Part shown: in pieces, positions 2,998 to 39,985 of the stretch
Position numbering within the stretch: position 1 is the stretch's first letter
How the letters are laid out: each line of letters opens with the position of its first letter
Virus record (IMG/VR): IMGVR_UViG_3300037258_000352
Coordinates: 32,001-96,000 of that record
Origin: a virus
DNA: 64,000 nt
Reading direction: 5' to 3' (one strand)
Notes under the pieces: generated by a model
What the model saw: only the letters and a program-made list of their open reading frames with translations
Told to the model about the DNA's origin: nothing
Database searches by the model: none
Made by a program: the position numbers and the translations under genes

Positions 2998-3022
2998 CCT
3001 ACTCCCACACCAAGGGGACCTG

Positions 3023-3464: not shown

Positions 3465-3823
3465 TGGACCCCAGACGGGAACCGGCACTGATCCTCGGGC
3501 TGTTCGCTGCGGCGGTGCAGATGGTGTCCGCGTTCGTGTTCCACCTCACCATCACCCAGCAGGGCACCCTCAACGCGGTCGCGATCGCTGTCGCGGGACT
3601 CGTCACCGCGATCTCCGTGAAGTCCGACCAGCTAGCCCCCCTGATCCTCGGGCTAGCGCAGGCGCTCCTCGCGGTGGGTCTCGCGTTCGGTCTGTACTTG
3701 TCCCCCGACAACCAGTCGGTGATCATGTCTTTCGTCGCGGCGGTGGTGGCCATGTTCATCAGAACTCAAGTCACCGCGCCCGCCGGCGCTAAGCTGGTCC
3801 CGGCAGGTTCGGTCGTGGCCTGA
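3464..3823 (+). CDS. Holin-like membrane protein
   Basis: REPALILGL start, four TM segments, RTQVTAP end typical of actinophage holins; last gene of lysis cassette. Confidence 0.7.
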   Translation: MDPRREPALILGLFAAAVQMVSAFVFHLTITQQGTLNAVAIAVAGLVTAISVKSDQLAPLILGLAQALLAVGLAFGLYLSPDNQSVIMSFVAAVVAMFIRTQVTAPAGAKLVPAGSVVA

Positions 3824-3847
3824 CCCCCCGGATCCCCCCTAAAGAAA

Positions 3848-3885
3848 GGGGCCCGGTCACCGTATCCAACGGTTGACCGGGCCCC
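3848..3885. terminator. Intrinsic terminator between convergent operons
   Basis: ggggcccggtca / tgaccgggcccc perfect stem with an A-rich left flank. Confidence 0.75.
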
Positions 3886-4070
3886 GCCACTTATTCGATT
3901 AGGGGCCCGGCCACCGGAGCAGCTCGGGCACCACCACTCTATCTTGACTCCTCCGTCCCGGTCACCACACCACCACCAGCGACGACAACACCACCAGGTA
4001 CAACCCCGCCGTGGACACCGCGAGTAGCACGGTGACCGCGTCTAACACTCGATCCACAATCCCCCCTCTC

Positions 4071-4718
4071 TCATTTCAGGAGCCGCAGGTTCTGCGCCCC
4101 CATCTCGTACGCCATCACCGTGAGCAGGCCCGCGATCAGGACCGCCGCGATCCCGTTCCACACCGCGCTACCGGTCAGGATCTGCAAACCGATCCCCACG
4201 ATCGCCAACGCCAGACCGGCGACGTCCATCGCGTCCTCCGCGGCCTGCGTTTTCATGGCCGTGTCGGTGGTGGTCCGCAGGAACCGAACCCACGGGATCC
4301 CGGCCCGTTCCCGGTTCAGGGTCCCGACCGCCCGCAGGAGCGACGTTCCCTCCAACATCGCCGAGCCGGTGAGGACCGCGAGCGCGACCAGCATCGACAT
4401 CCCCGCGACCTGCGGGTCGAGGATCGACTTCACACCCTCGTACGCGGCGAATAACCCACCGGTGACGAAAATGTTGATCGCCGCGACCAGGCCCCAGAAG
4501 AACCTGGCCTTCGTCCACCACTTCGAGTGCCACACCCCAGCGAGCAGGATCGGTGCGGTCAAGGAATCGACGAGGGAGTGGGTTGCTTCGGCGAGCATCG
4601 CCGCGCTACCGGTGATGACCCCGAGGACTGTTTTCGCGACCAGGATCGCGAGGTTCACACCGAGGGAGTAGAAGAGGTTCCCGGTGGTTTCGCTGGCCTC
4701 GACGGTCGTGGTGCTCAC
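4071..4718 (-). CDS. Cation diffusion facilitator (CDF) transporter, TM domain only
   Basis: NLAILVAK..TGSAAMLAEATHSLVD, EDAMD..G; six TM segments, no cytosolic CTD. Confidence 0.85.
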   Translation of the reverse strand: MSTTTVEASETTGNLFYSLGVNLAILVAKTVLGVITGSAAMLAEATHSLVDSLTAPILLAGVWHSKWWTKARFFWGLVAAINIFVTGGLFAAYEGVKSILDPQVAGMSMLVALAVLTGSAMLEGTSLLRAVGTLNRERAGIPWVRFLRTTTDTAMKTQAAEDAMDVAGLALAIVGIGLQILTGSAVWNGIAAVLIAGLLTVMAYEMGAQNLRLLK

Positions 4719-4765
4719 TGTGCTGTCCTCCGTGTCTGGTAGGTCTCCGCTGACCTACACCCGGT

Positions 4766-4793
4766 GTATCGCCGGTCGGGTCCGGTCCGTTAC
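4766..4793 (-). promoter_or_regulatory. ECF (SigD-type) promoter GTAAC-N17-CGATAC
   Basis: Exact motif; -35 contains the TAA stop of the methyltransferase gene. Confidence 0.75.
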
Positions 4794-5977
4794 AGCGAAC
4801 CGTTCAGGAGAAGCGCGACCGCTTCAGCGGCTTGGTGGGGTACGACCCCGTTCCCTGCGAGGCGGATCATGTCGTTCCTGGACAGCCCGGGGACGGTGGT
4901 GACCCACCCGTCGGGCCAGCCCTGCATCCATTCCGTGAAGTAGGGGCTTAACTGCTGGCCACCTCGCTGGCCGGTGACGGTTGGGTTGGGTGCTCGGCGC
5001 CCGAGGATGGTCTCCCACCTATAGATGGCTGGCCCGTAGTCGGTTCCATCGACACTGACCCAGGATCGTGGGGAATGAGCATCCTCACGGCCATCACCAG
5101 TGGTGTTCCGATCCCGTTGCCGTTGCGGCCCTTCTCTTTCTCCCGTTCTCTCCTGGCTTGCCAGGACTCCACCGATTCCCCGTCGTTGAAGTTCCCCGCG
5201 GTCGGAGTCGGGAGCAGCGCAATCGCATCGTCCAGGTTCCGTTTGCCTTGCGAGTACCGCAACCTCGCCGTCCTGACCGACATCGACCGACTCGAACCGT
5301 CGCCGTCCCGTGCTTGCGGTGTTGGGAGTAGCTGCATCACCGCACTGGGCAGCATCAAATCCCCACTGCTGCCCCGCTGGTTCGGTCCGCCCTTCTCCCC
5401 ATCCGACGCCCACACCGTCGACAGCAGGGCGGGCGACGATGAAGACCCTGAACCGGCCATGGGGGGCGCCAACGTCGGACGCTCGTAAACTGACCCATTC
5501 CGCATCGAACCCGAGGCTGGCCAGATCTCCGCAAACGGCGCCGCATGCCCGCAAAGCGCTATCCTCGTCGTCTCCCACACACCACGGGCAGGGTTCCAAG
5601 TCGCAAGCGGCTGCGGTGCTGAGTAGGCCGCGCACATTTTCGATCACCACCAGCTTCGGTCGTAGTTTGTTGATCGCGTAAGCCATGTGGGACCACAACC
5701 CCGACCGGGTCCCCGGCCGCAGCCCAGCGCGTTTCCCGGCGGAGCTGACATCAACGCAAGGGAACCCACCGGTTAGCACGTCGATCGGCTCGACCGTGTC
5801 CCAATCAACGGTCGTGATGTCCCCGGAGTTGGGCACTCCGGGCCAGTGGTGCGCGAGGACCTTCGACGCGGCGGGGTCGTTCTCCACGAACCACACCGGT
5901 TCCACGTCGAGGACCGAACCGACGGCGAGTTCCAACGCGCCCGCGCCGGCGAAGAGGCACCCGCTGCTCATGGTCAC
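4790..5977 (-). CDS. DNA (cytosine-5) methyltransferase
   Basis: LFAGAG, GGFPC, ENV, GAPHGRFRVF, EWMQGWP, GNGVVP motifs. Confidence 0.93.
   Translation of the reverse strand: MTMSSGCLFAGAGALELAVGSVLDVEPVWFVENDPAASKVLAHHWPGVPNSGDITTVDWDTVEPIDVLTGGFPCVDVSSAGKRAGLRPGTRSGLWSHMAYAINKLRPKLVVIENVRGLLSTAAACDLEPCPWCVGDDEDSALRACGAVCGDLASLGFDAEWVSLRASDVGAPHGRFRVFIVARPAVDGVGVGWGEGRTEPAGQQWGFDAAQCGDAATPNTASTGRRRFESVDVGQDGEVAVLARQTEPGRCDCAAPDSDRGELQRRGIGGVLASQERTGEREGPQRQRDRNTTGDGREDAHSPRSWVSVDGTDYGPAIYRWETILGRRAPNPTVTGQRGGQQLSPYFTEWMQGWPDGWVTTVPGLSRNDMIRLAGNGVVPHQAAEAVALLLNGSL
4948..5637 (-). CDS. Out-of-frame nested ORF within C5-MTase (LLPTP-repeat polypeptide)
   Basis: WPASGSMRNG and repeated LLPTP units as seen in alternative-frame partners of phage C5 MTases. 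Confidence 0.6.
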   Translation of the reverse strand: MCAAYSAPQPLATWNPARGVWETTRIALCGHAAPFAEIWPASGSMRNGSVYERPTLAPPMAGSGSSSSPALLSTVWASDGEKGGPNQRGSSGDLMLPSAVMQLLPTPQARDGDGSSRSMSVRTARLRYSQGKRNLDDAIALLPTPTAGNFNDGESVESWQARREREKEKGRNGNGIGTPLVMAVRMLIPHDPGSVSMEPTTGQPSIGGRPSSGAEHPTQPSPASEVASS

Positions 5978-7273: not shown

Positions 7274-7557
7274 GACGAATCTCCCTGCTCGATGGTTGGG
7301 CGGGCAGCGTCGATGAACTCAGTCACCCACACCGGAAACTCCGGACCCAACTCGTCCACCGGGCCGGTGTAATCCGAGTCGAGGTACATGCCGTTGACCG
7401 GGACCCCGTACTGGTGGTGGACCCACGCCCCGGTTTGGTCCCGCTCGTAGGTCACTCCGATCGTGTCCACGTCGACCACACCGCAGGCGTACCGAACCGG
7501 TGTCTTCCCGGACACTTTCCCGGTCACCGTGATCCCCGTGATCTCAACCATCGTCAA
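7270..7557 (-). CDS. Hypothetical protein, paralog of 6995-7273
   Basis: Same shared motifs as 6995-7273. Confidence 0.7.
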   Translation of the reverse strand: MTMVEITGITVTGKVSGKTPVRYACGVVDVDTIGVTYERDQTGAWVHHQYGVPVNGMYLDSDYTGPVDELGPEFPVWVTEFIDAARPTIEQGDSS

Positions 7558-7599
7558 CCTCCAACCAGAAGCGGGCGACCTCGGAGTCGGTCCGCGTGA

Positions 7600-7830
7600 T
7601 CACGCTGGTACCCGCTTCATAGCTCGTCGCTCATCGGGAGTGGTGCCCCCGGAGATCCCCGCGTCCTGCCCTGTCGTCAGAGCCCAGTCCAAGCACTCCG
7701 AGTTGACCGGGCAACGCCGGCACACGGCCTTAGCCTCGGTGATCTGCAGCAACGCAGGACCCGACGTCCCGATCGGAAAGAACAATTCGGGATCTTCCTC
7801 CCTGCACGCTGCACGGTGCCGCCAGTCCAT
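7600..7830 (-). CDS. whiB: WhiB1/WblE-like Fe-S transcription factor
   Basis: MDWRHRAACREEDPELFFPIG..C..C.....C..GISGG; GGAGGTG RBS. Confidence 0.93.
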   Translation of the reverse strand: MDWRHRAACREEDPELFFPIGTSGPALLQITEAKAVCRRCPVNSECLDWALTTGQDAGISGGTTPDERRAMKRVPA

Positions 7831-8298
7831 CCCACTCACCTCCATCGCTTCGGTTGGTGCCAGCGGCACCGGTTAGTTACAGCTCAATGTCCGGTGCTGA
7901 CCCCGAGGGTCAACCGCGGGGTGGGGGCTGGTGGTGCGTTGTTCGCGGTGTCCCGCCACGGCCCGCACTGCTCATGATCGTGCGCGGTCCCACCCCGACC
8001 GGCCTCGTTCGCGGCCACCCCCGAGCACTGCTCGACCTTGCTGTGTGTTCTACTCCCGAACATTCCGTGTCCCTCCGTGTCTGGTGGTGTCCGCACACCA
8101 CCCGTTGTCACCCGGCCCGGTCGAGCCGGCGGGTCCCTCGTCCCTGCGGGTAGGTCCGCAGCCACATCCCCGCGCATTTCACTGCGGTCTCGTACACCGC
8201 TGGGACCGTGTCCCTCGAGAACGCCATCAGCTCAACCATCGTCAGGGGGAGCCGTTCGAGGCAGTCCCCACAGGTCCCGCAGTCCCCACCGCAGTCAC

Positions 8299-8520
8299 TC
8301 ACTGGGGAAACGAGAGTGTTTCGCTGATAACGGTCATCGTGCCCCGCGCCCACCGGGGTAGCCGGTCGTCGGCCGCGATGTATCCGGTTGCGCGTGCGGC
8401 GATCTCACCGTCGTCAGTGGGATCCACTTCCCCGGGTGCGATCCATTCGGCTTCGAGTGCGGCTGCGTGCCAAGCTTCGGGGTCGACGTCGATCTCGATG
8501 ACGATTCGCGCTCTGATCAC
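8299..8520 (-). CDS. Hypothetical protein
   Basis: Preceded by leader variant and SigA-like promoter. Confidence 0.6.
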   Translation of the reverse strand: MIRARIVIEIDVDPEAWHAAALEAEWIAPGEVDPTDDGEIAARATGYIAADDRLPRWARGTMTVISETLSFPQ

Positions 8521-8574
8521 TGTGGTGTCCCTCCGCGTCTACCGGCGTCCGCCACGCCAGTCTGTAATGTCACA

Positions 8575-8603
8575 AGACTACATCCGTGGGTGGTGACCGT
8601 CAA
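8575..8603 (-). promoter_or_regulatory. SigA-type promoter TTGACG-N17-TAGTCT
   Basis: Consensus hexamers with 17-bp spacer. Confidence 0.6.
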
Positions 8604-8750
8604 CGGTTACCGGGGAGGGTCCGAAGTCGATCGGACCGATCCGGATCCCCGACGGGTCCACCCCGTCCATCGCGGCGAGCTTGTCCCGCATCGAGGTCAA
8701 CACCTCAGCCAGGACCCGCTCCACACCCAACGAGACCTCACACCGGCACA

Positions 8751-9026
8751 TCAGAGCAGCGCCAGCACGATCACCAAACAACCCACCACCATCAACGACA
8801 CCGCGAACGTCGCCAGCATCGCCCGGTACTCCGCGCGCTTCACCGCGATCATCAGGTCCTCATCCGCTAACACCGTCGCCAACGCTGCGGGGCCCTGCTC
8901 CACGACACCAACCGATCCACCCATGGTCAGGAACTTGGCCATCAACTCCGCTGCCTCCCGAGCAGTCCCACACCCCACAGTGAGGGAGTCGGCCCCGTTT
9001 TTCGTTTCGACTGTGTAGCTCTTCAT
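8751..9026 (-). CDS. Hypothetical membrane-anchored protein
   Basis: GACACGGAGG leader; C-terminal TM. Confidence 0.55.
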   Translation of the reverse strand: MKSYTVETKNGADSLTVGCGTAREAAELMAKFLTMGGSVGVVEQGPAALATVLADEDLMIAVKRAEYRAMLATFAVSLMVVGCLVIVLALL

Positions 9027-9075
9027 GCTGATCAATCCCTCCGTGTCCTCGTTCCGCTGTGCCTTACATCCCGTA

Positions 9076-9103
9076 TAATCGCGAGGGCCGGCCCGGGTGT
9101 TAC
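9076..9103 (-). promoter_or_regulatory. ECF promoter variant GTAAC-N17-CGATTA
   Basis: Motif variant with conserved spacing. Confidence 0.55.
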
Positions 9104-9131
9104 ACCCTGACCGGCCCTGGATTCCCGACGC

Positions 9132-9638
9132 TCACACCGCTTCGGAGGGTAACCCCGGGCCAGCGTGTTCGGTGAGGTATTCCCGCCACGTCCAATCCAG
9201 TCGCCCGTTCCACAGACCGTCCTCGACGGTGGCGGTGGAGAACAACGCCGCCCGGCTCGCTGCGACCCGCCCGACCCGGAAGTAGGCGCCCTGCGGGTCG
9301 AACCCTTCCACTCGCAACGCCCGCCCCGCCGCTTCGAGCGCTAGCCACGCGTCCCGCAGCTCCGGGTACGCGATGGCGACCACCTCCCGCCGGCGGTCGA
9401 GCTCGACACTGCGGCGCGCGGACCGGAGGGCCTGCTCGGCTTGGGCGTAGGTCAGGGTCCATCCGGTAGCGGCTTTGACGTGGGACCGCCCGAGGGTCAT
9501 CACCCGACCGTCGGGGTTGACGACGTCGTAGAGGTGTTTCAGTGGCCGGCCGCAGTGGTCACACGACCCCTCGGTGTGCCGGATCCCCGTCAAATACCAA
9601 GCGCTGGACCCGATCTGCGCTGCTGCGGTGGGGCTCAT
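9132..9638 (-). CDS. Hypothetical protein with CxxC motif
   Basis: Leader motif and promoter upstream; CDHCGRPLK. Confidence 0.65.
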   Translation of the reverse strand: MSPTAAAQIGSSAWYLTGIRHTEGSCDHCGRPLKHLYDVVNPDGRVMTLGRSHVKAATGWTLTYAQAEQALRSARRSVELDRRREVVAIAYPELRDAWLALEAAGRALRVEGFDPQGAYFRVGRVAASRAALFSTATVEDGLWNGRLDWTWREYLTEHAGPGLPSEAV

Positions 9639-10280: not shown

Positions 10281-11716
10281 AGCGCGCACTCCGCGACGAT
10301 GGTCCGCATCGCCACCGTGACCGCGAGCCTGAACGCGTCGAGCTCGAACCTCGATCCCTCGATGACAACGTCGCATCCACCGGGACCGATGAGGACCAGA
10401 CCCCACCCATCGTTGGCGATCCGCGACCCGTCGGGCAGCACCTCCCCCGGGTAAGCGACCCGCACCGGCGCCGTCGCCGGCAGCGACTCCACACGCTCAG
10501 CCATCACCAATCACTCCGATCCGGTTAGGGGCAGCACACCAGGCACGGTGGGTGCGAGGTCGCGCCGCAGTAGCACTCCGTTGGTGCGTCGTACTCGGGG
10601 GCGGGCCCGTGGTCGGGTGCCACTGGGCCGTGGCCCTTGCGGATCACGTTGCCCCGCCCGGGGTCCTCCCCGTCGCACAACTCCCGGTCACCACCGACGC
10701 CAGCGACGACCGCCCGCCATGGGGCCTGGGTCGCGATCCGTTCCACCCCGACCCGGCACCGTTGGCAAGACCCGAGCAGCGCGTCCCCCGCTGGGTCCGG
10801 TGCTGGCGTCGGTCGTTGCCGTGGGCGAGGTCTGCTAGCGACAACCGCCCGGGCGAGACCGATCACGCCGGCGTAGAACTCATCGGCCGGGCCCATCACG
10901 CGGTCGGATCACTGATCAGGCAGAGCGGGCAGTAATCCACACCGACCGGCACCGGTGTACCGCACCCGACGCAGTCGGCCAGCTTCACCCACAATCGACA
11001 TAGGTATCTCACGCCCTGCTCCCTCCTTTGTTGGGTCGGATCTCGAAACCGGACATGGCTAGCGCGTGGTGCAGTGCGACGACGTCCTCATCGAACATCA
11101 CCGGCCACGGGCACCCACCGAGATTGCACACCGTCATCCCGTATCGGCAGGCTCGGTGACCCGACCGGATTTGCTCCACAACCTGTCGCAGCGCGGTCAG
11201 GCCAGCGTCCCCGGACATCAGAGCCACCCGTTCGCGAATCCGACCAGGGCCAGTTCGCGGTGCATCTTCACGATGGGCTCGGCTGCGTGGTCGGGGAGGA
11301 TCCACTCCAAACCGGTGGGATCTACGGTCCGCCAGGATTCGGGGATCGCGTCGGCGACCTGCTCGAAATTGCGTAACCACACCTCGTGAGTGGTCATTTG
11401 CTTCCGTCCTCCGTGTCCCAGCCGGGTCCGTCGCCCGGCGCTCGCTACCTGCGTCATCCCCTGGGGAGGATCCGTGTCCTCTCGCGGTACTCATTGCAAA
11501 TCCCGATGATCTGAGCGTCGCTGAGGTGTTGGACCACGCCGTGATCGGTGACCAATCGCCCCGCCGACTGCAAGATCTGTCGCATGACAGCCGGGACCAC
11601 AACCCGAGCTTTCTTCCCTTCCAGCGTGCGGTAGGTGACGAGGTGCTCAACCTCAGTGTCCGTGGACATGGGGGCCTCCCTTGTCTCGGTGGCCCGGGTG
11701 GGGCCGCTCACTATCT

Positions 11717-11744
11717 GTATCGCCGCCCGGTGTGCGGGTGTTAC
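11717..11744 (-). promoter_or_regulatory. ECF promoter GTAAC-N17-CGATAC
   Basis: Exact motif; -35 overlaps TAA stop at 11741. Confidence 0.75.
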
Positions 11745-11944
11745 GCCGCCCACGCGAGCAGTCCCGCATACACTGCTTCCTCGACCAGTTCCGGGTCCGG
11801 GATGTGGCGGATGAACTCCCGCTTCGCGCCGTCGTCGTGTTTCCCACCCGACTCGACCCGGATCGACCCGTACCCCAACAGGCGTTGCACGTAGGTCTGC
11901 TCCACCGTCAAATCGGTGTGCTCGCCCCCTGCATCTCCAGCCAA
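11741..11944 (-). CDS. Bacterial PH-domain (bPH_2-like) protein fragment
   Basis: VEQTYVQRLLGYGSIRVESGG. Confidence 0.55.
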   Translation of the reverse strand: MAGDAGGEHTDLTVEQTYVQRLLGYGSIRVESGGKHDDGAKREFIRHIPDPELVEEAVYAGLLAWAA

Positions 11945-11971
11945 CTAGTCCACGTCGTCGTGCACACAACC

Positions 11972-12424
11972 TCACCTCCACCTGTTAGCGCGGTCGATGG
12001 ACGCACCAACAGCCTCATCAACCGTGGGGTAGATATGGATCCCACGACGGGTGGCCAGTTCCCGGAGATAGGCGCGGGCACGGTTTAAGTCCTTCAACTC
12101 GCGCCCTGTGATGGTCTGGCCGTCGATCACAGTTCCGTCGGTGATGTTGTGGATGACGAGCAGGGCGTCGTACGAGTTGACGGTGGCCACGAACTCGGTC
12201 GCCTCCAGCATCGACGCGATGGCCCGGGTCTGGTGGTCGATGACGAACAGCACCTCAACGGACGCGATCTTCGCGTCGGCTTCGGCCTTCACGAGTTCTG
12301 GGGACCAGTCCTCAACTTGAGGGTTGTAGTAGGACACCCCCGCTGCCTCTAGCAGGGGGATGGCGATGTCCGCGCGCCACGTGGTCGGGTTGCAGCTTCC
12401 GCCTAGGAACAGGTGTGGCCTCAT
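11972..12424 (-). CDS. Nucleoside 2-deoxyribosyltransferase-like protein
   Basis: FLGGSCNPTTWR..YYNPQV.DW..E; leader motif upstream of ATG 12424. Confidence 0.7.
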   Translation of the reverse strand: MRPHLFLGGSCNPTTWRADIAIPLLEAAGVSYYNPQVEDWSPELVKAEADAKIASVEVLFVIDHQTRAIASMLEATEFVATVNSYDALLVIHNITDGTVIDGQTITGRELKDLNRARAYLRELATRRGIHIYPTVDEAVGASIDRANRWR

Positions 12425-12469
12425 TCGTTTACTCCTCCGTGTCTGTGCTGGCCCGCACCAGCAACCCCC

Positions 12470-12540
12470 AGGGTAAACCTGGGTGGTCCCAGCGTCAACG
12501 CTTACAACCTGTGTATCGGCCGGGACCACCACCGCGTTAC
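12470..12540 (-). promoter_or_regulatory. Tandem promoter: ECF GTAAC-N17-CGATAC (12540-12513) followed by SigA TTGACG-N17-TACCCT (12498-12470)
   Basis: Both motifs present; near-copy at 20544-20613. Confidence 0.7.
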
Positions 12541-13267
12541 ACCCGCAGGTCCTCCCCAGGACACCGAGCCCGGAGACCCACCGGGTAATACCACCGGATC
12601 GTCGCGAAATCCTCCCCGGGAGCCAACAGTCCCAGGCGGGGTGTGTGACACCGGGCGCACCGCTGCTCGTACTCGGCGTGGTCACCCAACACCCCACGCG
12701 CCCCGGGTTCCCACACATGCCCACACATGCCCACCCAGGTCCGAGACAGCGACCGGGGTCGCCGGGGCCGAGGGTGGAGCGCCCACCGGCACGATCACAT
12801 AATCCGGATCGAGGGTCACCCCGTGGGTGTCGTAGGCACCGCACCGCAACGGCCGGCGGATCACGACGCCACCCGCCGGATCCGCACCACCACCGGCACG
12901 CCACCCGCACCGACCCGCCCTGCTCGTGGTGGACCTCGAAACTGTCATCCGGGAGCCGGCTCCACGCCCGCGCGGTGCTCCACCATCAACACATCCACCA
13001 CATGCCGAGTCAACCGCGGCGCGTACGGGTGCCCGTCATGCGGCGCGTCCCACGTCATCCACGGGATCCCCTGCTGCGCCTTCCCCAGGTCCGGGCGCAG
13101 CACGTGGGGGGCACCGCAAGTTCGGCATCCTGCGAGCCATTCCCACGGCACGTCCCCACCCAGCGTGAGGATCCCCACCTGGTGGGCGCTGCTTACCCCA
13201 CTCGCGGCGGCCGGGCCCACCGCAGGTTCTGGGGTTCCGTCACCCACCGGGTGACTACCACCTGTCG

Positions 13268-13762
13268 TCACGATCCCGGCGGCGTCCCCAAGAGCCGCAA
13301 CCCATCGACGTCGACGACGACCCGGACCCCCGGCGCCAACACCCCACCATTACGCGCGGCAGTCGCCGCCCCAGACGGCTCCAACCCCGCAGACACCAAG
13401 ACGTGCATCAACTGCGCCACCTCCACCTCACCAGCCGGCCACGACCGTCGACGACCCGACCCGCAACCAGGGTTCGCGGCCTGCAGGTAACCGCTCCGCG
13501 TCCAGTAGTCCAACGTCCGGTACGTCAACCCCGGGACCGCCTCCTGAATCTCCCGGTACGACACCGGGGCCTCCGTCACGACGGAGATGCACTTCTCGCA
13601 CCGCCGGCCGCGCCCGGTGTCCCGCCACGGCACCACCCGAGCTGGTTCCCCGCACAGGGTTTTCGCGCCGTCCACCGCGTGCGCGACAACGAATTCCGGG
13701 TCAGCGTGGCGACCTACCGTCTCCCGCCACACGACTGGTGTGTCCTCCCCTGGCCCGGGCAT
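13268..13762 (-). CDS. MerR-type HTH DNA-binding protein
   Basis: GLTYRTLDYWTRSGYL..GSGRRRSW. Confidence 0.7.
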   Translation of the reverse strand: MPGPGEDTPVVWRETVGRHADPEFVVAHAVDGAKTLCGEPARVVPWRDTGRGRRCEKCISVVTEAPVSYREIQEAVPGLTYRTLDYWTRSGYLQAANPGCGSGRRRSWPAGEVEVAQLMHVLVSAGLEPSGAATAARNGGVLAPGVRVVVDVDGLRLLGTPPGS

Positions 13763-14251
13763 CAGCGGGACCCCGCGAGGAGGTCCCCCGAGTCACCGGA
13801 ATGAGCTGGCCCACGCACCGGGGCGACTGGCTCATCCTTGGGTGGGTTCGGGCAGAACCCCGGCGTCGACCCACACGCCACCACCGGGCCCTCCCGCATC
13901 ACCGCCCCCGCAGCGCCACCCACAACCCCCACCGCGAACGCCAACACCAGCGACACCACAAACACCACAACCTGCCGGTTCACCGCCACCGCGGACCTCC
14001 TAACCGACTGAGCAAATCCACGAGGGGACCCACCTCAGTCACCGGTACCGATATTTGCCTCGTCGGATCCGAGTCAAGGTAAAACGACCAAGCGTCTCGT
14101 TCCGGGCTCCGGATCACGATCAGCGTCGATGGTGCCCCATCATGCCGCCGACCGGGTATCGCCACCCGAAGCTGCTCATTCTGCGGGACCTCCGCGTGCG
14201 GGCCAGGCAGGTCAACCAACTGCACGACACCTCCCCTATCGGAACGGACTG

Positions 14252-14494
14252 TCACCATCGGTGGGTGTCCGCTGTCCACCCGAAGAACCGGGATAAACGA
14301 CGCGGGTACCAACCTCGCCCACCACATTTACGGCACGCCCCCCGCACCACCACCCGGAAGATCAACGAAACCGCTTTCCGCCACCCAGCACCGTTGCACC
14401 GCAGGCACGCCTTTTCGGGACTTCGCCACGCGTTGTAGAGCATCGCCCCGGACCCACCGACAACGGCGACACCGGCCGCCTCAATCACGATCAT
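14252..14494 (-). CDS. Small membrane-anchored zinc-finger protein
   Basis: CLRCNGAG..CRKCGGRG. Confidence 0.55.
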   Translation of the reverse strand: MIVIEAAGVAVVGGSGAMLYNAWRSPEKACLRCNGAGWRKAVSLIFRVVVRGACRKCGGRGWYPRRLSRFFGWTADTHRW

Positions 14495-14523
14495 GTCCAC
14501 CGTGGACCTCCCGGGTCCCTCGT

Positions 14524-14690
14524 GTGTCACGGGCACCTCCCGTGACACCGTCACGGCTAGTCACGGGCCGTGTCACGGCGTCGTCACGCGGGTTTGTCAC
14601 GGGCTGTCACGCGTGACAAACCCGGTGACCTCACACCCACCGCCCGCACCGTCCCCCCCGACTGTCACGGCTGTCACAGGGCCCGTGTCA
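14524..14690. repeat. GTCAC(GG) repeat cluster, putative clt (cis-acting locus of transfer)
   Basis: About 9 direct GTCAC and 3 inverted GTGAC copies in about 165 bp downstream of the TraB-like gene. Confidence 0.7.
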
Positions 14691-15137
14691 TACCTTGCTC
14701 GCGGCCATACTCCTTCGCTGGTGCAACATCCGCGCACCGCGCTCCAGCCTATGGAAATTGCGCATCAACAGCGGGGTCACTTCCCGCCGAGCGGTACGTA
14801 AATCGCCCACACCGAACAGTCGCCTAAATTCGGACAGGTCATCACACCCGGAGTCGTCTCCCCATGACTGGGAGTACCTGACGTCGTAGCCGTGGACTTT
14901 GTGGAGCCACAGGGCGATGGCTTGGACCCCAGCGACGAGGACGAGCCCGTATTCGTGGGGTTTCGCGTCGCAGTCGTTCCCGGAGAGTTCCACTTTCCCT
15001 TCCGCGCCGCCGCGGATGGGTTGGACATGCGCTTTCCGGGTTCGGATTTTCAGTTCCGTCGCGGTCAACGCATGCCCAGCTTCGTGGATAGCGACACCCA
15101 TGAGCAGATCAATCTCACGGGGTGGGGTGGGGGTCAT
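14688..15137 (-). CDS. HExxH metallopeptidase-like (M41-like) protein
   Basis: VAIHEAGHA, AG..A, DD motif. Confidence 0.6.
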   Translation of the reverse strand: MTPTPPREIDLLMGVAIHEAGHALTATELKIRTRKAHVQPIRGGAEGKVELSGNDCDAKPHEYGLVLVAGVQAIALWLHKVHGYDVRYSQSWGDDSGCDDLSEFRRLFGVGDLRTARREVTPLLMRNFHRLERGARMLHQRRSMAASKV

Positions 15138-16579
15138 GCTGCTGCCTCATTCCCCCCGACCTGCGGGTTCCGCACCGGAATCCACCCACGGTCAGACTTC
15201 TCGATCCGACCGTCCTTGGCCATGTACTTATAGAGACTGGCCCTTGACCACCCGCAATCAGCGAGGAGGTTGATAAACGAGTTCGCTTCCAACCGGTCCG
15301 TGCCGCTGGCCAGGAACTCGGTGACTACTTCGGCGAGGACCTCCGCGAACTCCTCCGGGGTCAGACCGTCTTTCGGGGGGTCCCCGATCATCCGGGCGAC
15401 TGTGGGGTGGGTGGGGGCGTCCGGGTCAGCGAGTTCCGTGTCATCGTCAAGGTCGGATGCGTCGAGCTCGAAATCAACGTCTCCGTCGTCGTTGGTGACG
15501 ATGATCCGGTCTCCGACCAGGGCCAGTTCCGACTCCTCAAGCTCGGGGTCGTCGTCGTAGAGCTCCTCGAGCGCGGCGAGGTACTCCGCGTCGTCGGGAT
15601 CGAACCCATCGATTTCGTCGTCATCAGCGTCGACGTCTATGGGGGTCGGTGCGACGGCTTGCGCCGCAGCGACCAACGCCGACCCAGTCACAGGACCGGG
15701 GACGATCATCCCGTTCTGCTTGACTAGGTCCAACGGGGTGATGTGAGTGGTCCACAAGTCCCCCAGCGAATCTGCGGTGACCTGGCACATGTCCCCGAGG
15801 TTCGCGGCGACATACGCGGCAGCCGACGCGAACGTGTGCTCACCGACCCCATCGGACCACGACCGGTGGGTCATCAACTTCTCCCGGACCGTCATCCCGG
15901 GACCGACGAGGTAGTGCATCCCGGGGTCGTCGGCGCCCCACTGCGACGGTTTCGCGCCGGCGTTGACGACTTCCTCTGGGAGGGAGTACTGGTCGTATTC
16001 GGAGTCGGTGATGCCGTACGCGCGGTAGGACCCCATCTGGTTCCGGACGGTGGTGGGGATGTTGTCCCAGGTTGGTTGCTGGATGCTGTACGTGAGTTGC
16101 CCACCAGCGGACCGCAACGCGACCGCGAGCCCGACGATCTCCTTGGACTCGGCCAGTCTCCACGCCTCTTCGATGTGGATCCGCAGGAACCGCAGGCTCG
16201 ATGACGGGGCCCACTGCTTGAGACCTTCCCTCGAGAGGTGGCTGGTCCGCTCCGGCAGGGTGCGGTTGAGGAGTTGCCGCAGGAGCCGCTTCGCGCGACC
16301 GGGGTCGATCTCGTACATCTGCAGGCACCCAGCGACGTCTTGGTAGGACTGGATGCCTTTGACGGTGTCAATCAAAATCTGGTCGATGCGCATCGCACCG
16401 CAGGTCAGCAGGACCGGGAGTTCCCCCCACGTCTTCCCGGAGCCGGTGGTCCCGGAGATCAGGCAGTGGACCCCACCCTCGGGTCGAGCGATTCTGAACA
16501 GGCCGGTTTCCCCGTCGGAGCGGCGGCTGACGGGGATCCCGGAGAACGGGTTCGCGCCCTTGAGGAGCTTGATCTTCAT
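15134..16579 (-). CDS. TraB/FtsK-SpoIIIE-like DNA translocase motor with acidic linker and probable C-terminal wHTH
   Basis: GTTGSGKT Walker A, IHIEEA Walker B, RSAG, GAKPSQWG..PGMHYL; own AGGAG RBS. Confidence 0.8.
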   Translation of the reverse strand: MKIKLLKGANPFSGIPVSRRSDGETGLFRIARPEGGVHCLISGTTGSGKTWGELPVLLTCGAMRIDQILIDTVKGIQSYQDVAGCLQMYEIDPGRAKRLLRQLLNRTLPERTSHLSREGLKQWAPSSSLRFLRIHIEEAWRLAESKEIVGLAVALRSAGGQLTYSIQQPTWDNIPTTVRNQMGSYRAYGITDSEYDQYSLPEEVVNAGAKPSQWGADDPGMHYLVGPGMTVREKLMTHRSWSDGVGEHTFASAAAYVAANLGDMCQVTADSLGDLWTTHITPLDLVKQNGMIVPGPVTGSALVAAAQAVAPTPIDVDADDDEIDGFDPDDAEYLAALEELYDDDPELEESELALVGDRIIVTNDDGDVDFELDASDLDDDTELADPDAPTHPTVARMIGDPPKDGLTPEEFAEVLAEVVTEFLASGTDRLEANSFINLLADCGWSRASLYKYMAKDGRIEKSDRGWIPVRNPQVGGNEAAA

Positions 16580-16581
16580 GA

Positions 16582-17409
16582 CTACTTCACTCCTACGAGC
16601 AGACCGGGCCACGGTTGGGCATCTTCGATGGGGTTGAGGTGCATGACGGTGACGTCACAGATTTGGGCGTTGCGGGACTTCGGGCGGGCGTAGACCTTCA
16701 TTGATCCGGGGGGGAACCCGTGCGCGGACTCCACCGAAGCGATGTCCCGCTGGAACTCCAGCATCGTGTCCCCCGGGGCGAGCCGGAGTGTGCCTTCGCT
16801 GCGGAACTCCGACACCCGCCGCAACGCGAGGGACGCCCCGTCGTGGCCGGCCATCTTCATGGGGGTGTCGGGTGGGTTCTGGGCGGCGAGGATCTCCGCG
16901 AGCTCCGCGACCCGATGCCTAGCGTTGATCCTGGTGTTCCAGATCGCGGCCAACGCGGACCCACCAGCGAAGAACGTCGCGATGGTGAACCCGTGGGTGG
17001 AGAACACCCACCCCGGGTTACCGGTGGTGAAGGTGATGAACCCGGTGATGGTGCACAGCGACAGCCACGCCCCCCCGAACGCGGTGGTGGCTACCCCGTG
17101 CCAGCGGGCGGTCCCGGTGTGGGACCGTTGGGTTTGCCACACCGAGTACGTCATCCCGATCGTCGCGACCATGATCAGCGCCACGGTCCCCGCCCGGCTC
17201 CACGCGGTTTCAACGAACGCGTGGAGCACGGTCCCCGCTAGCCAGAACAAGCCGAGGACGACCCACGGGATGAAGTGGACGGCGTGGTCGTGCAACGCGT
17301 GCCCGACCACGCCTCCGGATCCGGTGCGGGCACCCGTCCCAGCGCTGGGACCGCGCGGAGGAGCCGGCGGGCGTGTCTGCCGGGTGCTCGACCTGAATCC
17401 CTTACCCAT
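16582..17409 (-). CDS. N-terminal membrane part of TraB-like translocase
   Basis: Four TM segments, then a soluble domain ending P..QPWPG as in actinomycete TraB N-termini. Confidence 0.65.
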   Translation of the reverse strand: MGKGFRSSTRQTRPPAPPRGPSAGTGARTGSGGVVGHALHDHAVHFIPWVVLGLFWLAGTVLHAFVETAWSRAGTVALIMVATIGMTYSVWQTQRSHTGTARWHGVATTAFGGAWLSLCTITGFITFTTGNPGWVFSTHGFTIATFFAGGSALAAIWNTRINARHRVAELAEILAAQNPPDTPMKMAGHDGASLALRRVSEFRSEGTLRLAPGDTMLEFQRDIASVESAHGFPPGSMKVYARPKSRNAQICDVTVMHLNPIEDAQPWPGLLVGVK

Positions 17410-17424
17410 TTCCGTTCCCCTGTC

Positions 17425-17817
17425 TTACGCGGCGTTACGCCGACGGTTGCCGCCGTTGTTCTGATTATTGTTCTGTCCACCCTGACCGTTGTTCTGGCCC
17501 TTCCGGGAACGGCTCGGGACGAACACGGCGCTGAGGATCCCTTCCGCGTTGCCCATCATTTTCGAGCAATGCGACATCAGCAACGCGGACCGGTGAAGGT
17601 CCCGAGCGATTCGAGCTGCCGCTTGCTCCTTCTCTTTCTGCGACATCAACGCCCCCCGCGACGGGGAATGAGCGAGACGCTTTTTAGCGACCCGGGAAAT
17701 GATTTGCATCTCCATTCCAGCGTTGAGGAACAAGTTAGCCATGTCGTGGATCCATGCGCGCATCGCACCGGGGTCACGCAATACTGCTTCGTCCGCTGTG
17801 CGCCTCGTGATACCCAT
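17425..17817 (-). CDS. Hypothetical transfer-module protein
   Basis: Position upstream of traB-like gene; N/Q-rich tail. Confidence 0.55.
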   Translation of the reverse strand: MGITRRTADEAVLRDPGAMRAWIHDMANLFLNAGMEMQIISRVAKKRLAHSPSRGALMSQKEKEQAAARIARDLHRSALLMSHCSKMMGNAEGILSAVFVPSRSRKGQNNGQGGQNNNQNNGGNRRRNAA

Positions 17818-17861
17818 TGCCTTTTACCCTCTCTCGATTTCCTTGGTGTGCCTGACTTCGA

Positions 17862-18365
17862 TCAGCCGTTGCAGCCGGCGCAATGGACGGGGATCCCCGC
17901 GCAACCCTTCCCGCTGCGGGACATGGCCAGCAGCATCACCAGCGCGAGGACAATCCCTAACCCGACTGTCCCCTCAGCGACCGCGGCGCCGTGGACCCCG
18001 AACCACGTTCCGATCCCGTGGATGATCCGGTAGAGCCCGTACATTCCCAGCGACGCGCTGCCGGCGATCAGGGCGTATTTCACGATCGGGCCGGCGGCGA
18101 TGACGTAGTCGATGGCTTCGACTTGGGATCCGTCGGGGATCCCGATGGGGATGGTGGGTGCGCCTGGGGTGACGAACACCCGGTAGGTGACCTGCCCCGG
18201 GGTGACCGGGGTGAGTTGCTCCGGGGTGCGGACCGCGACACCCATCTCCTGGTACCGGCCCGCCGTGTACATCACGTCAGCGAGGTAGCCGTTCAGGACC
18301 CGTTCCTCGATCTGGGTGATCGTGGTGGTCGGGTGGGTGGTGGGGATGAGCTGGGTGGGTGACAT
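17862..18365 (-). CDS. Membrane protein with C-terminal C..HC..C motif (Spd-like)
   Basis: Two TM segments, CAGIPVHCAGC. Confidence 0.55.
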   Translation of the reverse strand: MSPTQLIPTTHPTTTITQIEERVLNGYLADVMYTAGRYQEMGVAVRTPEQLTPVTPGQVTYRVFVTPGAPTIPIGIPDGSQVEAIDYVIAAGPIVKYALIAGSASLGMYGLYRIIHGIGTWFGVHGAAVAEGTVGLGIVLALVMLLAMSRSGKGCAGIPVHCAGCNG

Positions 18366-18389
18366 GGCGGGGTCTCCGGGGTGGGTGGG

Positions 18390-19256
18390 TTACGCCGCGA
18401 GGACGCGGGCGAGTTGGCGGGCGGTGGTGTCGGTGACCCGGTACCCCACCGGGAGGCGGGTGGGGAGCTCAGTCATGAGGACCCGACGGCCGGTGGTGAG
18501 GCCCCGCTGCCCCCGCTCGTCCCGGAGTTCCCGGGCGGCGGCGTAGATGGTGGGGTCCACCCCGGGGGGTGGGGTGGTGGCGTTCGGTGTGGGGACGAGT
18601 TCCAGCTCCACCCCGGGGTGCGGAGTCCCGGGGTGGGCTGGCTCGTCCCCCGCGGGGGTGTGGGTGGGGGGCACCGTCACCCGGGGGAAGTCCCCCGCGG
18701 GGTCGAGGTCTGGGGTGGGGTCACCCGTGGTGCGGTCCGAGAGGCCCCGGAGGTCGGCCAGGAGGGATTCGAGTTCCGCGTCGACGTCGTCGAGTTCACC
18801 CGTGGGGGAGGTGTCCAGCTCGGTGCGGATCTCCGCGAAGTGTCGACGGACCCGGGGGGCGGCTTCCGCTAGGAGCAGGATCAGGCCGGGGGCTACGGAG
18901 TGCAGCAGGATCCCCGACGGGACCGCTGCGGCGGCGGACACCCAAATGTTCATCGCCCAGGTCGCGATGCCGGCGAACCACATGGTCCCGGTGAGCCAGG
19001 GTTCTTTCCGGCCGTAGTCGGCGAGGATGCTCCCGAACACGATCGCGGTCCCGAGGGTGATGGAGGCCATTGGGTCGAGGAGCCACGCGATCCACCACTC
19101 GAAGCTGTGCCAAGGGTGGCCTGCGGATGCGAATCGTTGGACGTTGACCATCGTGAACACGAGGGCCAGCACAGCGACGGCGGTCAGGGCGTAGGCACCC
19201 CAGCGGCCCATGCGGGTCAACCATTCCGCCTCGTCGCGCTGGTTGGTGGTGTCCAT
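18390..19256 (-). CDS. SpdA/SpdB-like plasmid-spread membrane protein
   Basis: FTMVNVQRFA, IAWLLDP, LHSVAP.L..LAEAAP; Pro-rich linker. Confidence 0.7.
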   Translation of the reverse strand: MDTTNQRDEAEWLTRMGRWGAYALTAVAVLALVFTMVNVQRFASAGHPWHSFEWWIAWLLDPMASITLGTAIVFGSILADYGRKEPWLTGTMWFAGIATWAMNIWVSAAAAVPSGILLHSVAPGLILLLAEAAPRVRRHFAEIRTELDTSPTGELDDVDAELESLLADLRGLSDRTTGDPTPDLDPAGDFPRVTVPPTHTPAGDEPAHPGTPHPGVELELVPTPNATTPPPGVDPTIYAAARELRDERGQRGLTTGRRVLMTELPTRLPVGYRVTDTTARQLARVLAA

Positions 19257-19423
19257 CGGTGCTGGTCCTTTCCCCGTAGGTTGTTTGGTGGTGCCGTCCG
19301 GTCGAGGTCTGTAATCGGCGCCCGACCGGACAGCACCTTGTGATGTTACATCCCTACGTGTTAGCACATGCGACACCCGGTCACGTTACATACTGAATAC
19401 CCAGTATAGGTAGACTCCGTGAC

Positions 19424-20260
19424 ATGACGGGATCAATCGGGGCCGGGCTACGCCGGCGACAACTCGCGGAGATACTCACCGAGCTCCGCAAGACCAGCGG
19501 TAAAGACCAGGTCGCCGCTGCTGCGGCGTGTGACTGCTCCCGACCTCAGATCAGCAATTTCGAGTCCGGGAGATACGTCCCGAGCCGGTTGGAGCTCCCC
19601 GCCCTGCTGGAGTGCTACGGCGCGCTGGACCGGCTCCCTGAGCTGGAGGAACTCCGGGCCGCGGCGAACGAACCAGGCTGGTACTCGACGTATGGCCTGC
19701 CGGTGTGGTTGCAGTCCTATGTGCGGCTTGAGGACGACGCGATCCAGGTTCGGTGTTTCGCGTCTGGTCTGGTCCCGGGGCTGCTGCAAACCCAGGACTA
19801 CGCCCGGACGGTTCAGCAGGAACACGGGGCCAGCACCCCGGAGGTTCAGCGGCGGCTCGCGGTCCTCGCGGGACGGCAGAAGCGGCTAGGGATAGGGATG
19901 ACCCTGTCCGTGGTGGTGTCGGAGGCGTTGCTGCACCTGACCGTGTGTATGGGTGAGGTGGGGGTGGAACAGCTCGCGAGTCTCGCGGCGACGAGGGTCG
20001 CGGAGGTCCTGGTCCTGCCGTACTCGGCGGCCCTGACGCGGGGGATCGGTCACTGGACGGTCCTCGACTTCCCGATGGGGGTGTCCCCGGTCGCGTATGA
20101 GGAACATGCGATCGGTGGGCACCTAGCGGATGATCGGGGACTGGTAGGGAAGTTGGCCTCGCTGTATCAGGAGCTGCACTCCGCGGCTCTATCAGTGGAG
20201 GACAGTGCAACGAAGATCAGGCAGGTCATGGGTCTAACCAAGGAAGGGACAAGGCGATGA
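19424..20260 (+). CDS. XRE-family HTH regulator with DUF5753 domain (Scr1/WhiJ-like)
   Basis: RRRQLAEIL..ISNFESG, VPGLLQTQDYAR, ALS..DS. Confidence 0.9.
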   Translation: MTGSIGAGLRRRQLAEILTELRKTSGKDQVAAAAACDCSRPQISNFESGRYVPSRLELPALLECYGALDRLPELEELRAAANEPGWYSTYGLPVWLQSYVRLEDDAIQVRCFASGLVPGLLQTQDYARTVQQEHGASTPEVQRRLAVLAGRQKRLGIGMTLSVVVSEALLHLTVCMGEVGVEQLASLAATRVAEVLVLPYSAALTRGIGHWTVLDFPMGVSPVAYEEHAIGGHLADDRGLVGKLASLYQELHSAALSVEDSATKIRQVMGLTKEGTRR

Positions 20261-20478
20261 AGATCGAAGGCGTCGACGTTGGGCAGGTTGGGGAGTTCGT
20301 GAAGGCGACCGCGAGCGAGTCGGTGGACAAGTGTGTGTCCGTCGCGGTGACGAGCACGGGGCATCGGGTGGTGCGGCATTCCACGCGGGTCGGTGGTGCG
20401 GAGATCCCGTTCGATCGGGATGAGTGGTCCGCGTTCCTCGTCGGGGTCCATGCGGGTGAGTTCGACATCGCCGACTGA
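20257..20478 (+). CDS. DUF397 protein (Scr2/BldB-like partner)
   Basis: KA..S...CVSVA..VRHS..F..EWSAFL.GV.AGEFD; ATGA overlap with XRE gene. Confidence 0.88.
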   Translation: MKIEGVDVGQVGEFVKATASESVDKCVSVAVTSTGHRVVRHSTRVGGAEIPFDRDEWSAFLVGVHAGEFDIAD

Positions 20479-20543
20479 CCGGTGTGGTGTGGGGCGGTCC
20501 CTTCGCGAGACGCGGGCGAGGGGACCGTCGCCGTTTCCGGGGT

Positions 20544-20613
20544 GTAACGCCGGCTGGGGTGTGGCCGATACAGGGGTGTAAGCGTTGACACCCGCACACC
20601 ACAGGTTTACTCT
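20544..20613 (+). promoter_or_regulatory. Tandem promoter: ECF GTAAC-N17-CGATAC (20544-20571) plus SigA TTGACA-N17-TACTCT (20585-20613)
   Basis: Exact motifs. Confidence 0.75.
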
Positions 20614-21550: not shown

Positions 21551-21618
<68 letters not shown>

Positions 21619-21622
<4 letters not shown>

Positions 21623-22008
21623 ACCGTAAACCGTTCACCACCGACACCACTTTCCTGTTCGTTGACGGCCCCCCTGACGGCCGGAGGTTCCCGATCACCC
21701 TGGCGTGGTCACCGGAAGCACCGTTGGAGGTTTGGTTCCTGTTCCCCCACCCGCACCCGTGGTGGATGGTGTCCCGGGACCTCCTCGCGGGGGGCCTGAC
21801 CACCGACGCTGGTCAGGGGGATGTGAGAGTCAGCCCGCACCGCCCGGCCGGTGTCAATATCGTGCTCCACGGTCGGCAGTTCAGTGTGGCGGTGAGGGTA
21901 TCCCGCCGGATGTTGCGGGTGTTCCTGAACAAGACGTTTCAGCGGATCCCCGCCGGGCAGGAGGTGATCCCGGAGCTAGACCGCGAGTTACAGGAGCTGA
22001 CTGGCTGA
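21619..22008 (+). CDS. SsgA-like sporulation/cell-division protein
   Basis: PLEV.F, W.VSRDLLAGGL...AGQGDVRVSP, FL..T...PAGQE. Confidence 0.85.
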
Positions 22009-39937: not shown

Positions 39938-39985
39938 GTCGTCCTCCGTGTCGTCGAGGGCCCACCGCTGGGGCCGTACACCCAT

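Follow-up and report, generated by a model that had tools for sequence, protein, structure and literature searches.

A Putative Two-Piece TraB Pump With an SpdB2-Like Partner and a Candidate clt Array in a Complete Tailed-Phage Genome

A TraB/SpdB2/clt-Type Module Lies on a Complete Phage Genome

The 64,000-nt stretch of DNA analyzed here (the window) comprises bases 32001–96000 of one 104,286-bp contig, the IMG/VR virus record IMGVR_UViG_3300037258_000352. Between positions 14252 and 20478 it contains a conjugation module of the actinomycete plasmid type, which consists of an SpdB2-like membrane protein gene, two small genes, a TraB-like FtsK translocase encoded in two pieces (TraB-N and TraB-C), a protease gene and a repeat array that is a candidate clt site. 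All coordinates are given in window numbering unless they are marked as genome. The module is real and, judged from its sequence, probably functional, whereby the chances are about even that it represents a working TraB/SpdB2/clt system that moves phage double-stranded DNA (dsDNA) between hyphal compartments or cells. TraB of plasmids is one polypeptide of ~600–800 aa, in which the membrane region is joined to the motor and the C-terminal winged helix-turn-helix (HTH) reads 8-bp TRS repeats; SpdB2 forms an oligomeric pore, binds dsDNA non-specifically and interacts with TraB. TraB together with clt suffices for transfer, and Spd proteins serve intramycelial spread (PMC4447253). The core parts of the module, with the transmembrane (TM) segments as predicted, are the following:

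16582–17409, minus strand, TraB-N, membrane anchor (four hydrophobic segments) plus soluble domain; NF041214 profile positions 5–211, E 4.6e-14, 51.8 bits
15134–16579, minus strand, TraB-C, FtsK-type motor, acidic linker and predicted C-terminal winged helix; NF041214 profile positions 249–626/639, E 1.3e-43, 149.5 bits
18390–19376, minus strand, SpdB2-like integral membrane protein with 3–4 predicted TM helices, a Pro-rich linker and an HTH-like C-terminal end
14526–14680, no strand assigned, candidate clt, 12 cores GTCAC(G/A) in 155 bp with the consensus (T)GTCACGG; TGTCACGG-type repeats

In IMG/VR, the contig is listed as a virus with direct terminal repeats (CheckV completeness, 100%). PHROG profiles identified virion genes on it, namely those for a portal, a MuF/protease-like head protein, the major head protein (E 3e-65), the major tail protein, a head-tail adaptor, the tape measure (E 2e-82) and the large terminase TerL (E 5e-68). 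Inside the window, the same type of profile matched a DnaB-type helicase, an exonuclease VIII-like gene and a replication initiator, whereby the replication genes of the phage lie ~30 kb from the module. An earlier reading, made from the sequence only, had placed the module on one replicon with a lysis cassette and phage replication genes. This is the case, as the virion genes, the GH25 lysin gene and the DnaB, exonuclease and replication initiator genes are all present on the contig, and contiguity with capsid and tail genes was likewise confirmed on this one complete contig. Two of these phage genes are referred to by position:

Genome 2951–5722, portal; PHROG E 2e-95
136–1158, GH25 lysin

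The identity of the portal to that of deposited actinophages does not exceed 35%. Therefore, the phage is, as far as its sequence tells, a member of a new lineage.

TraB Is Encoded by Two Genes With a Conserved Junction

The sequence-only reading had proposed a TraB-like FtsK translocase. The homology to plasmid TraB and the FtsK fold agree with this, but the assumption of a single gene does not hold, since there are two open reading frames (ORFs; 16582–17409 and 15134–16579). The NCBIfam family NF041214 (plasmid_TraB) matches the two in succession, whereby the match of the C half was scored on the listed ORF 15134–16612, and phrog_24831 gives the same two-part match (C half, E 5e-38). traB-N ends with TAG, and 2 nt further on an ATG with GGAG ahead of it opens traB-C in another frame. 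The tail of TraB-N is the conserved sequence QPWPGLLVG. Among 1.8 billion representative proteins, 432 TraB-C homologs were identified, nearly all of which are fused proteins of 600–800 aa to which the query aligns from about residue 250, and a few of which are split forms of 450–500 aa. Twelve C-type homologs (~470–500 aa, 49–84% identical) share one start point, and all of the 14 stand-alone N-type homologs (243–281 aa) end in QPWPGLLVG. N- and C-type homologs occur on contigs of equal size (5183, 110561, 35619, 17033, 5169, and 12239 bp), which suggests that the two halves are adjacent in the relatives, too. Since the N and C halves are conserved separately and with the same junction, down to ~49% identity, the split appears to be a stable gene fission that is conserved in relatives and no lesion.

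TraB-C contains a Walker A motif (G43–T50) and the acidic pair of a Walker B motif (E137–E138), and G43, G48, K49, and E138 are invariant across the 72 homologs of the TraB-C alignment. The match to PF01580 is weak (E 0.002 in one search and E 2.3e-5 in another). An AlphaFold (AF2) model of TraB-C from the 72-sequence alignment, which replaced a 12-sequence run (pLDDT 54.5), reached a pLDDT of 86.4. The top PDB matches of this model in Foldseek were FtsK motor domains (2IUS, E 6.5e-12, ~300 aligned columns), followed by EccC and TcpA; a sequence search of PDB with the TraB-C family profile yielded no match. The predicted winged helix comprises helices 408–425, 432–442, and 446–454 and a beta hairpin at 459–468, with pLDDT values of ~86–95.

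Complex prediction of TraB-N with residues 1–300 of TraB-C gave a score of 0.73, compared to 0.00 for the best of three controls. Of 80 solved complexes, 58 reach the mark used for docking, as do 2 of 110 mismatched pairs. The runs agreed in at least 96% of the contacts at a partner pLDDT of at least 84, and in the predicted interface the invariant P266-W267-P268-G269-L270 tail of TraB-N lies against the first strands of the motor. The model supports docking of TraB-N on TraB-C, whereby a positive outcome is to be expected for the halves of any split gene, and the result means that the junction is compatible with reassembly and is no proof of assembly.

Relatives of TraB-C were found neither in metagenome-contig nor in genome-contig collections, and IMG/VR contained one locus (L004, described below). 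In a tblastn search at E 1e-5, TraB-C had no match in 50,697 deposited phage records, and blastn with the module gave no match against phages and one 64-bp match against plasmids. On the sequence level, the two halves represent a distant TraB homolog and not an equivalog.

The Partner Protein Is Related to SpdB2 of Actinomycete Plasmids

The SpdB2-like gene is located 1 kb upstream of traB-N within the same operon, and the TM segments of its product span residues 59–82, 96–114, and 149–174. The gene probably starts at position 19256, which would give a protein of 288 aa; this start is preferred because the relatives are also ~288 aa long. By tblastn, 23 actinomycete plasmid records were matched (E to 5e-16), whereby the matched gene follows directly after a traB homolog, for example in NZ_CP108371.1 (traB at 38596–40743, SpdB2-like match gene at 40913–42382). 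A UniRef relative from S. rochei is named “Putative plasmid transfer protein SpdB2” (E 8.7e-18). The Pfam search gave no match, and the similarity to gp25 of phiC31/phiBT1 is weak (E 1e-4, ~26% identity over the TM region). The SpdA/B-like membrane protein that had been suggested from the sequence is borne out by the TM helices and by the homology to plasmid genes that lie beside traB and to a protein named SpdB2. Relatives of the SpdB2-like protein were also found on contigs of the TraB-half relatives (5183, 9049, and 35619 bp). Thus, the module seems to travel as a unit. Some of the SpdB2-like relatives are on contigs binned as Pseudonocardiaceae.

A Phased Repeat Array Occupies the Position of clt

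The repeat cluster reported from the sequence is present with 12 cores at 14526–14680. It begins 454 bp past the traB-C stop, with the protease gene in between. Of the cores, nine have the direct and three the inverted orientation, seven of the direct ones follow each other at a spacing of 10–13 bp, and the array, which is helically phased, occurs nowhere else in the genome; a perfect 13-bp palindrome is found within it at 14589–14624. With 12 cores against 0.74 expected per 170 nt, this is the densest window of the 104-kb genome, the next one having 6. By analogy, the array fits the published description of clt, since in pWTY27, pJV1, pIJ101, and pSVH1 clt is a cluster of repeats that lies at the 3' end of tra or shortly past it (PMC3583192). 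Scanning IMG/VR for GTCACGG-N-GTCACGG-N-GTCACG led to 116 loci, at none of which module proteins are encoded, and therefore the pattern alone is not specific.

The one IMG/VR locus with a TraB-C relative, L004, is part of UViG_3300049434_000014, a 153-kb record of 54% GC with direct terminal repeats. Its TraB homolog is a single 758-aa ORF, which is collinear with both halves and 35% identical. TraB is the sole protein that L004 has in common with the module, and no homolog of XRE, DUF397 or any other module protein is encoded within 21 kb. The L004 array at 12341–12656 is located ~0.9 kb after traB and contains at least 10 GTCAC/GTGAC (TGTCAC/GTGACA) cores in ~330 nt, where 0.83 are expected, and the GTCAC core forms the strongest 7-mer cluster of L004; no repeats were found directly past the traB stop (11483–11860). 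The predicted recognition helices of the two TraB proteins are alike (GWSRASLYKY versus GWARSNMYKY). Since the same core array follows TraB in the otherwise unrelated L004, the array seems to be tied to TraB and not to local regulators. It could also be that the main purpose of the array is to serve the XRE-DUF5753 protein, or another DNA-binding protein of the island, as an operator or for titration and that TraB acts at another site or non-specifically. In plasmids, the targets of the TraR/KorA repressors are repeated boxes close to tra/spd promoters (PMC4447253), and an inverted GTCACG pair is present between spdB2 and the XRE gene, which would suit an operator, but L004 has its array without encoding a homolog of the XRE or DUF397 protein within 21 kb and the array of the phage lies past the 3' end of tra as clt does (PMC3583192), so that we consider this explanation unlikely.

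Operon Structure, Accessory Genes and Control Region

The leftward gene string within 14252–20478 runs from the SpdB2-like gene over the genes for the 167-aa and 130-aa proteins, TraB-N, TraB-C and the protease to the repeat array and a small TM/zinc-ribbon ORF. The remaining features are:

17862–18365, minus strand, 167-aa protein with a C-terminal TM helix (124–152, TM prediction) and a Cys-rich tail
17425–17817, minus strand, soluble 130-aa protein with a Q/N/G-rich basic tail, listed for its position in the operon
14688–15137, minus strand, stand-alone HEAGH metalloprotease domain of 149 aa (Peptidase M41/FtsH-like), whose start overlaps the traB-C stop (ATGA)
14252–14554, minus strand, small protein of 100 aa as listed (possibly 80 aa from ATG 14494) with one TM helix (21–40) and two CXXC pairs (zinc-ribbon-like)
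19377–19423 (down to 19257 if the SpdB2-like gene starts at 19256), no strand assigned, divergent control region with an inverted hexamer pair
19424–20260, plus strand, XRE-family HTH plus DUF5753 regulator (Sco1979/WhiJ-like); PF19054 E 8.8e-30, PF13560 E 7e-11, NF058600 E 2.8e-30
20257–20478, plus strand, small DUF397 (BldB-like) protein, translationally coupled to the XRE gene; PF04149 E 3.7e-7

The successive gaps from the SpdB2-like gene to the protease gene are 24, 44, 15, 2, and −4 nt, and therefore the packing is operon-like. This agrees with the single leftward operon that had been claimed, apart from the extra protease gene inside it. The two small accessory genes were found between the SpdB2-like gene and traB-N, and the divergent XRE/DUF397 pair was found in place with its family matches, both as described before. 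The 130-aa and 167-aa proteins are candidate Spd-type accessories; neither had a family match among Pfam, PHROG, and NCBIfam profiles, and an ESM Atlas structure search with the 167-aa protein gave nothing informative. The HEAGH protease had no match in Pfam, and its structure neighbors in the ESM Atlas are M41 domains (TM-score 0.74–0.84 by query). It is reminiscent of the repressor-cleaving proteases of mobile elements, yet belongs to a different family. It is uncertain whether the gene at 14252–14554, just downstream of the repeat array, is part of the module; its product shows a weak match to DnaJ_CXXCXGXG (E 4e-5), which is below the cut-off.

Within the 47-bp spdB2–XRE intergenic region, the array hexamer occurs as an inverted pair, with GTCACG at 19380 and CGTGAC at 19418–19423. 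Scans for sigma-70 promoters and intrinsic terminators gave no signal above chance. As for the phage's own signals, the GACACGGAGG leader occurs 27 times in exact form and the promoter-like site GTAAC-N17-CGAT 17 times (window 4736–57456 and genome-wide), in each case co-oriented with genes. None of them lies within 12540–20544, which is the longest such gap (8 kb) in the early region. Thus, the module, which is located at the divergence point of two early arms, is under its own control. The left side of this motif-free island is bordered by a gene for a 312-aa protein (11972–12910, minus strand) with a nucleoside 2-deoxyribosyltransferase-like domain (PF15891, E 2e-15). An ECF-type sigma factor gene is present at 55304–55954 (minus strand).

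The Module Looks Like a Resident Cassette of the Phage

The sequence-only reading had described the module as being of the type of an actinomycete integrative and conjugative element (AICE). In the strict sense this is wrong, as int, xis, and rep were not found. Tyrosine integrase (PF00589) and serine recombinase (PF00239) had no match in the whole genome, and neither had ParB/ParA (PF02195, PF13614), whereby other partition types were not searched. No tRNA gene is present in the window, no ORF from 11009 to 20478 belongs to a Rep-type family, and just one 21-nt pair of 81% identity, judged to be due to chance, was found as att-like flanking repeats. GC, GC3, skews and codon usage of the tra/spd genes are all within 2 standard deviations of the phage mean (|z|<2). 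A compositional island was rejected on these grounds. A separately integrated AICE was rejected as well, in view of the missing integrase, recombinase, ParA/ParB, att repeats and window tRNA and of the ordinary composition, and the statement that the module is no separate element with its own att ends stands for the same reasons. The module therefore looks like an old, well-adapted cassette and neither like a recent insertion nor like an AICE.

That the module is mere cargo, i.e., a captured plasmid or AICE fragment that is neutral, selfish or decaying and has no ability for transfer, appears very improbable. Such an origin would suit the split of TraB, the fact that rep and int do not accompany the module and the lack of all 27 leaders and 17 promoter-like sites in the island, but conservation down to ~49% identity, with intact catalytic residues, is seen for both parts of TraB, for the junction between them and for the SpdB2-like gene. 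Composition and codon usage are phage-like, att repeats and tRNA are missing, and the nearest plasmid TraB proteins are just ~33% identical, which likewise speaks against a captured fragment.

Neighboring Genes and Other Possible Roles of the Pump

Two genes outside of the module bear on what the pump might do:

21556–22008, plus strand, SsgA-like protein, 1 kb right of the module; PF04686 E 1.2e-17
58497–60164, plus strand, VirD4/TraG type IV coupling protein homolog of 555 aa; PF12696 E 4e-20, PF02534 E 3e-16, PF10412 E 1e-5

The GC content of the genome is ~65%. The host is read as a sporulating, filamentous actinomycete because of the SsgA-like gene and the XRE/DUF397 pair, both of which point to such an organism. 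The SsgA-like gene is a phage version of a sporulation-septation factor. It is preceded by the phage's own GACACGGAGG leader, and its 5' end contains a perfect (GACGCA)x7.7 repeat (21561–21606).

It might be possible that the pump works within the infected hypha only, like FtsK/SffA, where it would clear or place DNA at closing septa without any transfer from cell to cell. In a variant of this, its task could be to bring phage genomes into prespore compartments (a spore-carrier state) or to resolve and segregate phage DNA during replication. The FtsK-like fold of the TraB-C motor, the septation protein encoded 1 kb away, the lack of detected lysogeny genes and the presence of FtsK-like genes in cultured lytic Streptomyces phages (PMC11536984; bioRxiv 10.1101/2024.02.16.580700) would be in line with such a role. 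Plasmid TraB, though, and not chromosomal FtsK is the family that matches best, and this match extends to the N-terminal region and the winged helix. The partner resembles SpdB2, a protein tied to plasmid spreading (PMC4447253), and at E 1e-5 no relationship to the FtsK-like genes of deposited phages was detected. Taken together, we assign a low probability to a purely intracellular pump.

The VirD4/TraG homolog is a second conjugation-type ATPase in the phage. Its gene is followed by a DUF6205 gene, and the protein shares ~30–34% identity with the coupling proteins encoded on small Streptomyces plasmids. No match to it was obtained in the 50,697 deposited phages, and no relaxase was found among the tested neighbors of its gene. 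This homolog is a hint of interplay with conjugative elements and thus of a module that acts on competitors, either by excluding or ejecting superinfecting phage or conjugative plasmid DNA or by hijacking the transfer of a resident plasmid. We rate this role as slightly less probable still than that of cargo; the module proteins match no PADLOC defence model beyond the P-loop, and a cis-acting array that is private to the DNA of the phage is more in keeping with self-transfer.

Further observations concern other phage genes. The DnaB-type helicase (797 aa, 50507–52900, minus strand) matches terminase/primase-type PHROGs with its mid part (~residues 220–600), which is possibly an intein or an inserted domain. 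Moreover, the genome carries a cation-efflux (CDF) family transporter gene (4071–4718, minus strand; PF01545, E 5e-23) and a Mom-family DNA-modification gene (genome 97285–97989, plus strand; PF25680, E 2e-48).

Proposed Function of the Module

For a TraB/SpdB2/clt system that transfers the DNA of the phage, the following course of events is conceivable. TraB-N would sit in the membrane and its conserved C-terminal WPG tail would dock the separately made TraB-C motor. TraB-C would form an FtsK-like ring, of which the C-terminal winged helix would read the phased TGTCACGG repeats 0.45 kb downstream (clt). This ring would work with the SpdB2-like protein, as its pore or partner, and with the small membrane proteins to pump the replicating dsDNA of the phage through septal cross-walls or contacts between hyphae, and infection would thereby spread through the mycelium, bypassing virions. 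The XRE-DUF5753/DUF397 pair would take the place of the GntR-type TraR/KorA of plasmids as local regulator. DNA binding, pumping, its direction and the biological role are inferred here and not demonstrated.

Several points weigh against this interpretation. The phage is uncultured and was read from its sequence alone, and the order of traB and spdB2 differs from that of plasmids. The NF041214 scores of the two halves (149.5 and 51.8 bits) are far below the equivalog cut-off of 800 bits, and the identity of TraB-C to plasmid TraB proteins is ~33% over the motor alone. The array hexamer recurs as an inverted pair in the divergent promoter region, so that the array is possibly one of XRE operators. 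Probing of the L004 record with portal, TerL, Terminase_6N, and Phage_capsid gave no match; this record is viral by its IMG/VR label alone and may be a circular plasmid. Finally, no integrase or partition genes were found, and if the phage is strictly lytic, its gain from slow DNA pumping is doubtful.

If the module works as in plasmids, phages of multicellular bacteria would have a second way of transmission, namely virion-free spread. Plaque growth, host range and defence would then have to be seen differently, as would gene flow in soil actinomycetes, and the loss of a receptor would not block spread within a colony. A more far-reaching version, which we put forward tentatively and with more doubt than belief, is that of a “movement machine”, in which, once a single virion has infected one compartment, the plasmid-derived two-piece TraB and the SpdB2 channel of a phage without detectable lysogeny genes would pump naked replicating DNA through cross-walls and perhaps between touching hyphae, so that the mycelium is taken before lysis. 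It would then be a bacterial counterpart of the cell-to-cell movement of plant viruses. The neighboring SsgA-like gene and the VirD4-like ATPase may share the same strategy of septa and DNA traffic. The split TraB is also useful as a tool, since the anchor is separate from the motor and winged helix at the conserved WPG junction, whereby the soluble motor and the 155-bp array make up a simple pair for testing. As the TGTCAC array recurs in unrelated DNA next to a TraB that is 35% identical, it provides a concrete and testable protein–DNA recognition code.

Comparison With Known Systems

The closest model is the TraB-clt-Spd system of plasmids such as pSVH1, pIJ101, pJV1, and pWTY27 (PMC4447253, PMC3583192). 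The module shares with it the FtsK-type motor, the membrane region on its N-terminal side and a predicted winged helix at the C terminus, the SpdB2-like 4-TM partner, small translationally coupled membrane proteins, the repeat cluster after tra and a divergent regulator. It differs in that TraB consists of two polypeptides with ~33% identity over the motor, that the regulator is of the XRE-DUF5753/DUF397 type instead of GntR, that spdB2 is located upstream of traB, that an M41-like protease gene is inserted and that the replicon is a tailed phage. AICEs (pSAM2, SLP1, pMEA300; PMC2440964, PMC3218068) have the same TraB-type dsDNA transfer and Spd functions, but their defining features, namely int/xis, a rep gene and att sites (often within tRNA genes), were not found here.

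Among replicons that combine phage and transfer genes, pZL12/phiZL12 is described in later reports as a 90-kb Streptomyces plasmid-phage (Zhong et al., 2010, J Bacteriol 192:3747; via PMC3583192, PMC4487206), of which the conjugal transfer needs a tra gene (PMC3583192) and which has ParA/ParB and lives as a plasmid prophage (PMC4487206). Going by these descriptions, it resembles the phage studied here in having virion genes and a tra gene on one replicon and differs in its ParA/ParB, as ParA, ParB, and integrase were not found here; pZL12 was absent among the matches. Plasmid pS1D4-14.2 of Streptomyces sp. S1D4-14 (NZ_CP041606.1, 98.8 kb), a replicon that resembles a phage-plasmid, carries a phage portal gene together with a strong TraB match (E 5e-86, profile 4–623). 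There, TraB is fused (a 661-aa annotated gene, 7457–9442), and the portal is just 28% identical, and therefore the plasmid represents a different lineage.

With regard to cultured phages, gp25 of phiC31/phiBT1 and relatives is weakly matched by the SpdB2-like protein of the window. Such phages have no TraB-C match at E 1e-5, whereas here the SpdB2-like gene is in an operon with TraB and a repeat array. The FtsK-like proteins of the cultured Streptomyces phages Geonosis, Mandalore, and Naboo (PMC11536984; bioRxiv 10.1101/2024.02.16.580700) are FtsK-superfamily ATPases as well, but show no detectable relationship to TraB-C by tblastn at E 1e-5, and neither an SpdB2 partner nor clt has been described for them. 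The SpdB2 homologs of phages (phiC31/VWB) have been proposed to assist the spreading of phage DNA (Thoma et al., 2015, citing Smith, 1999, and Van Dessel, 2005; PMC4447253). The idea of virion-free spread of phage DNA is thus not new, as pZL12 and Thoma et al. (2015) precede it. Overall, the module is of a known kind, and its variant features are the setting in a complete phage without detectable lysogeny genes, the XRE/DUF397 control, the M41-like protease within the operon and the split pump.

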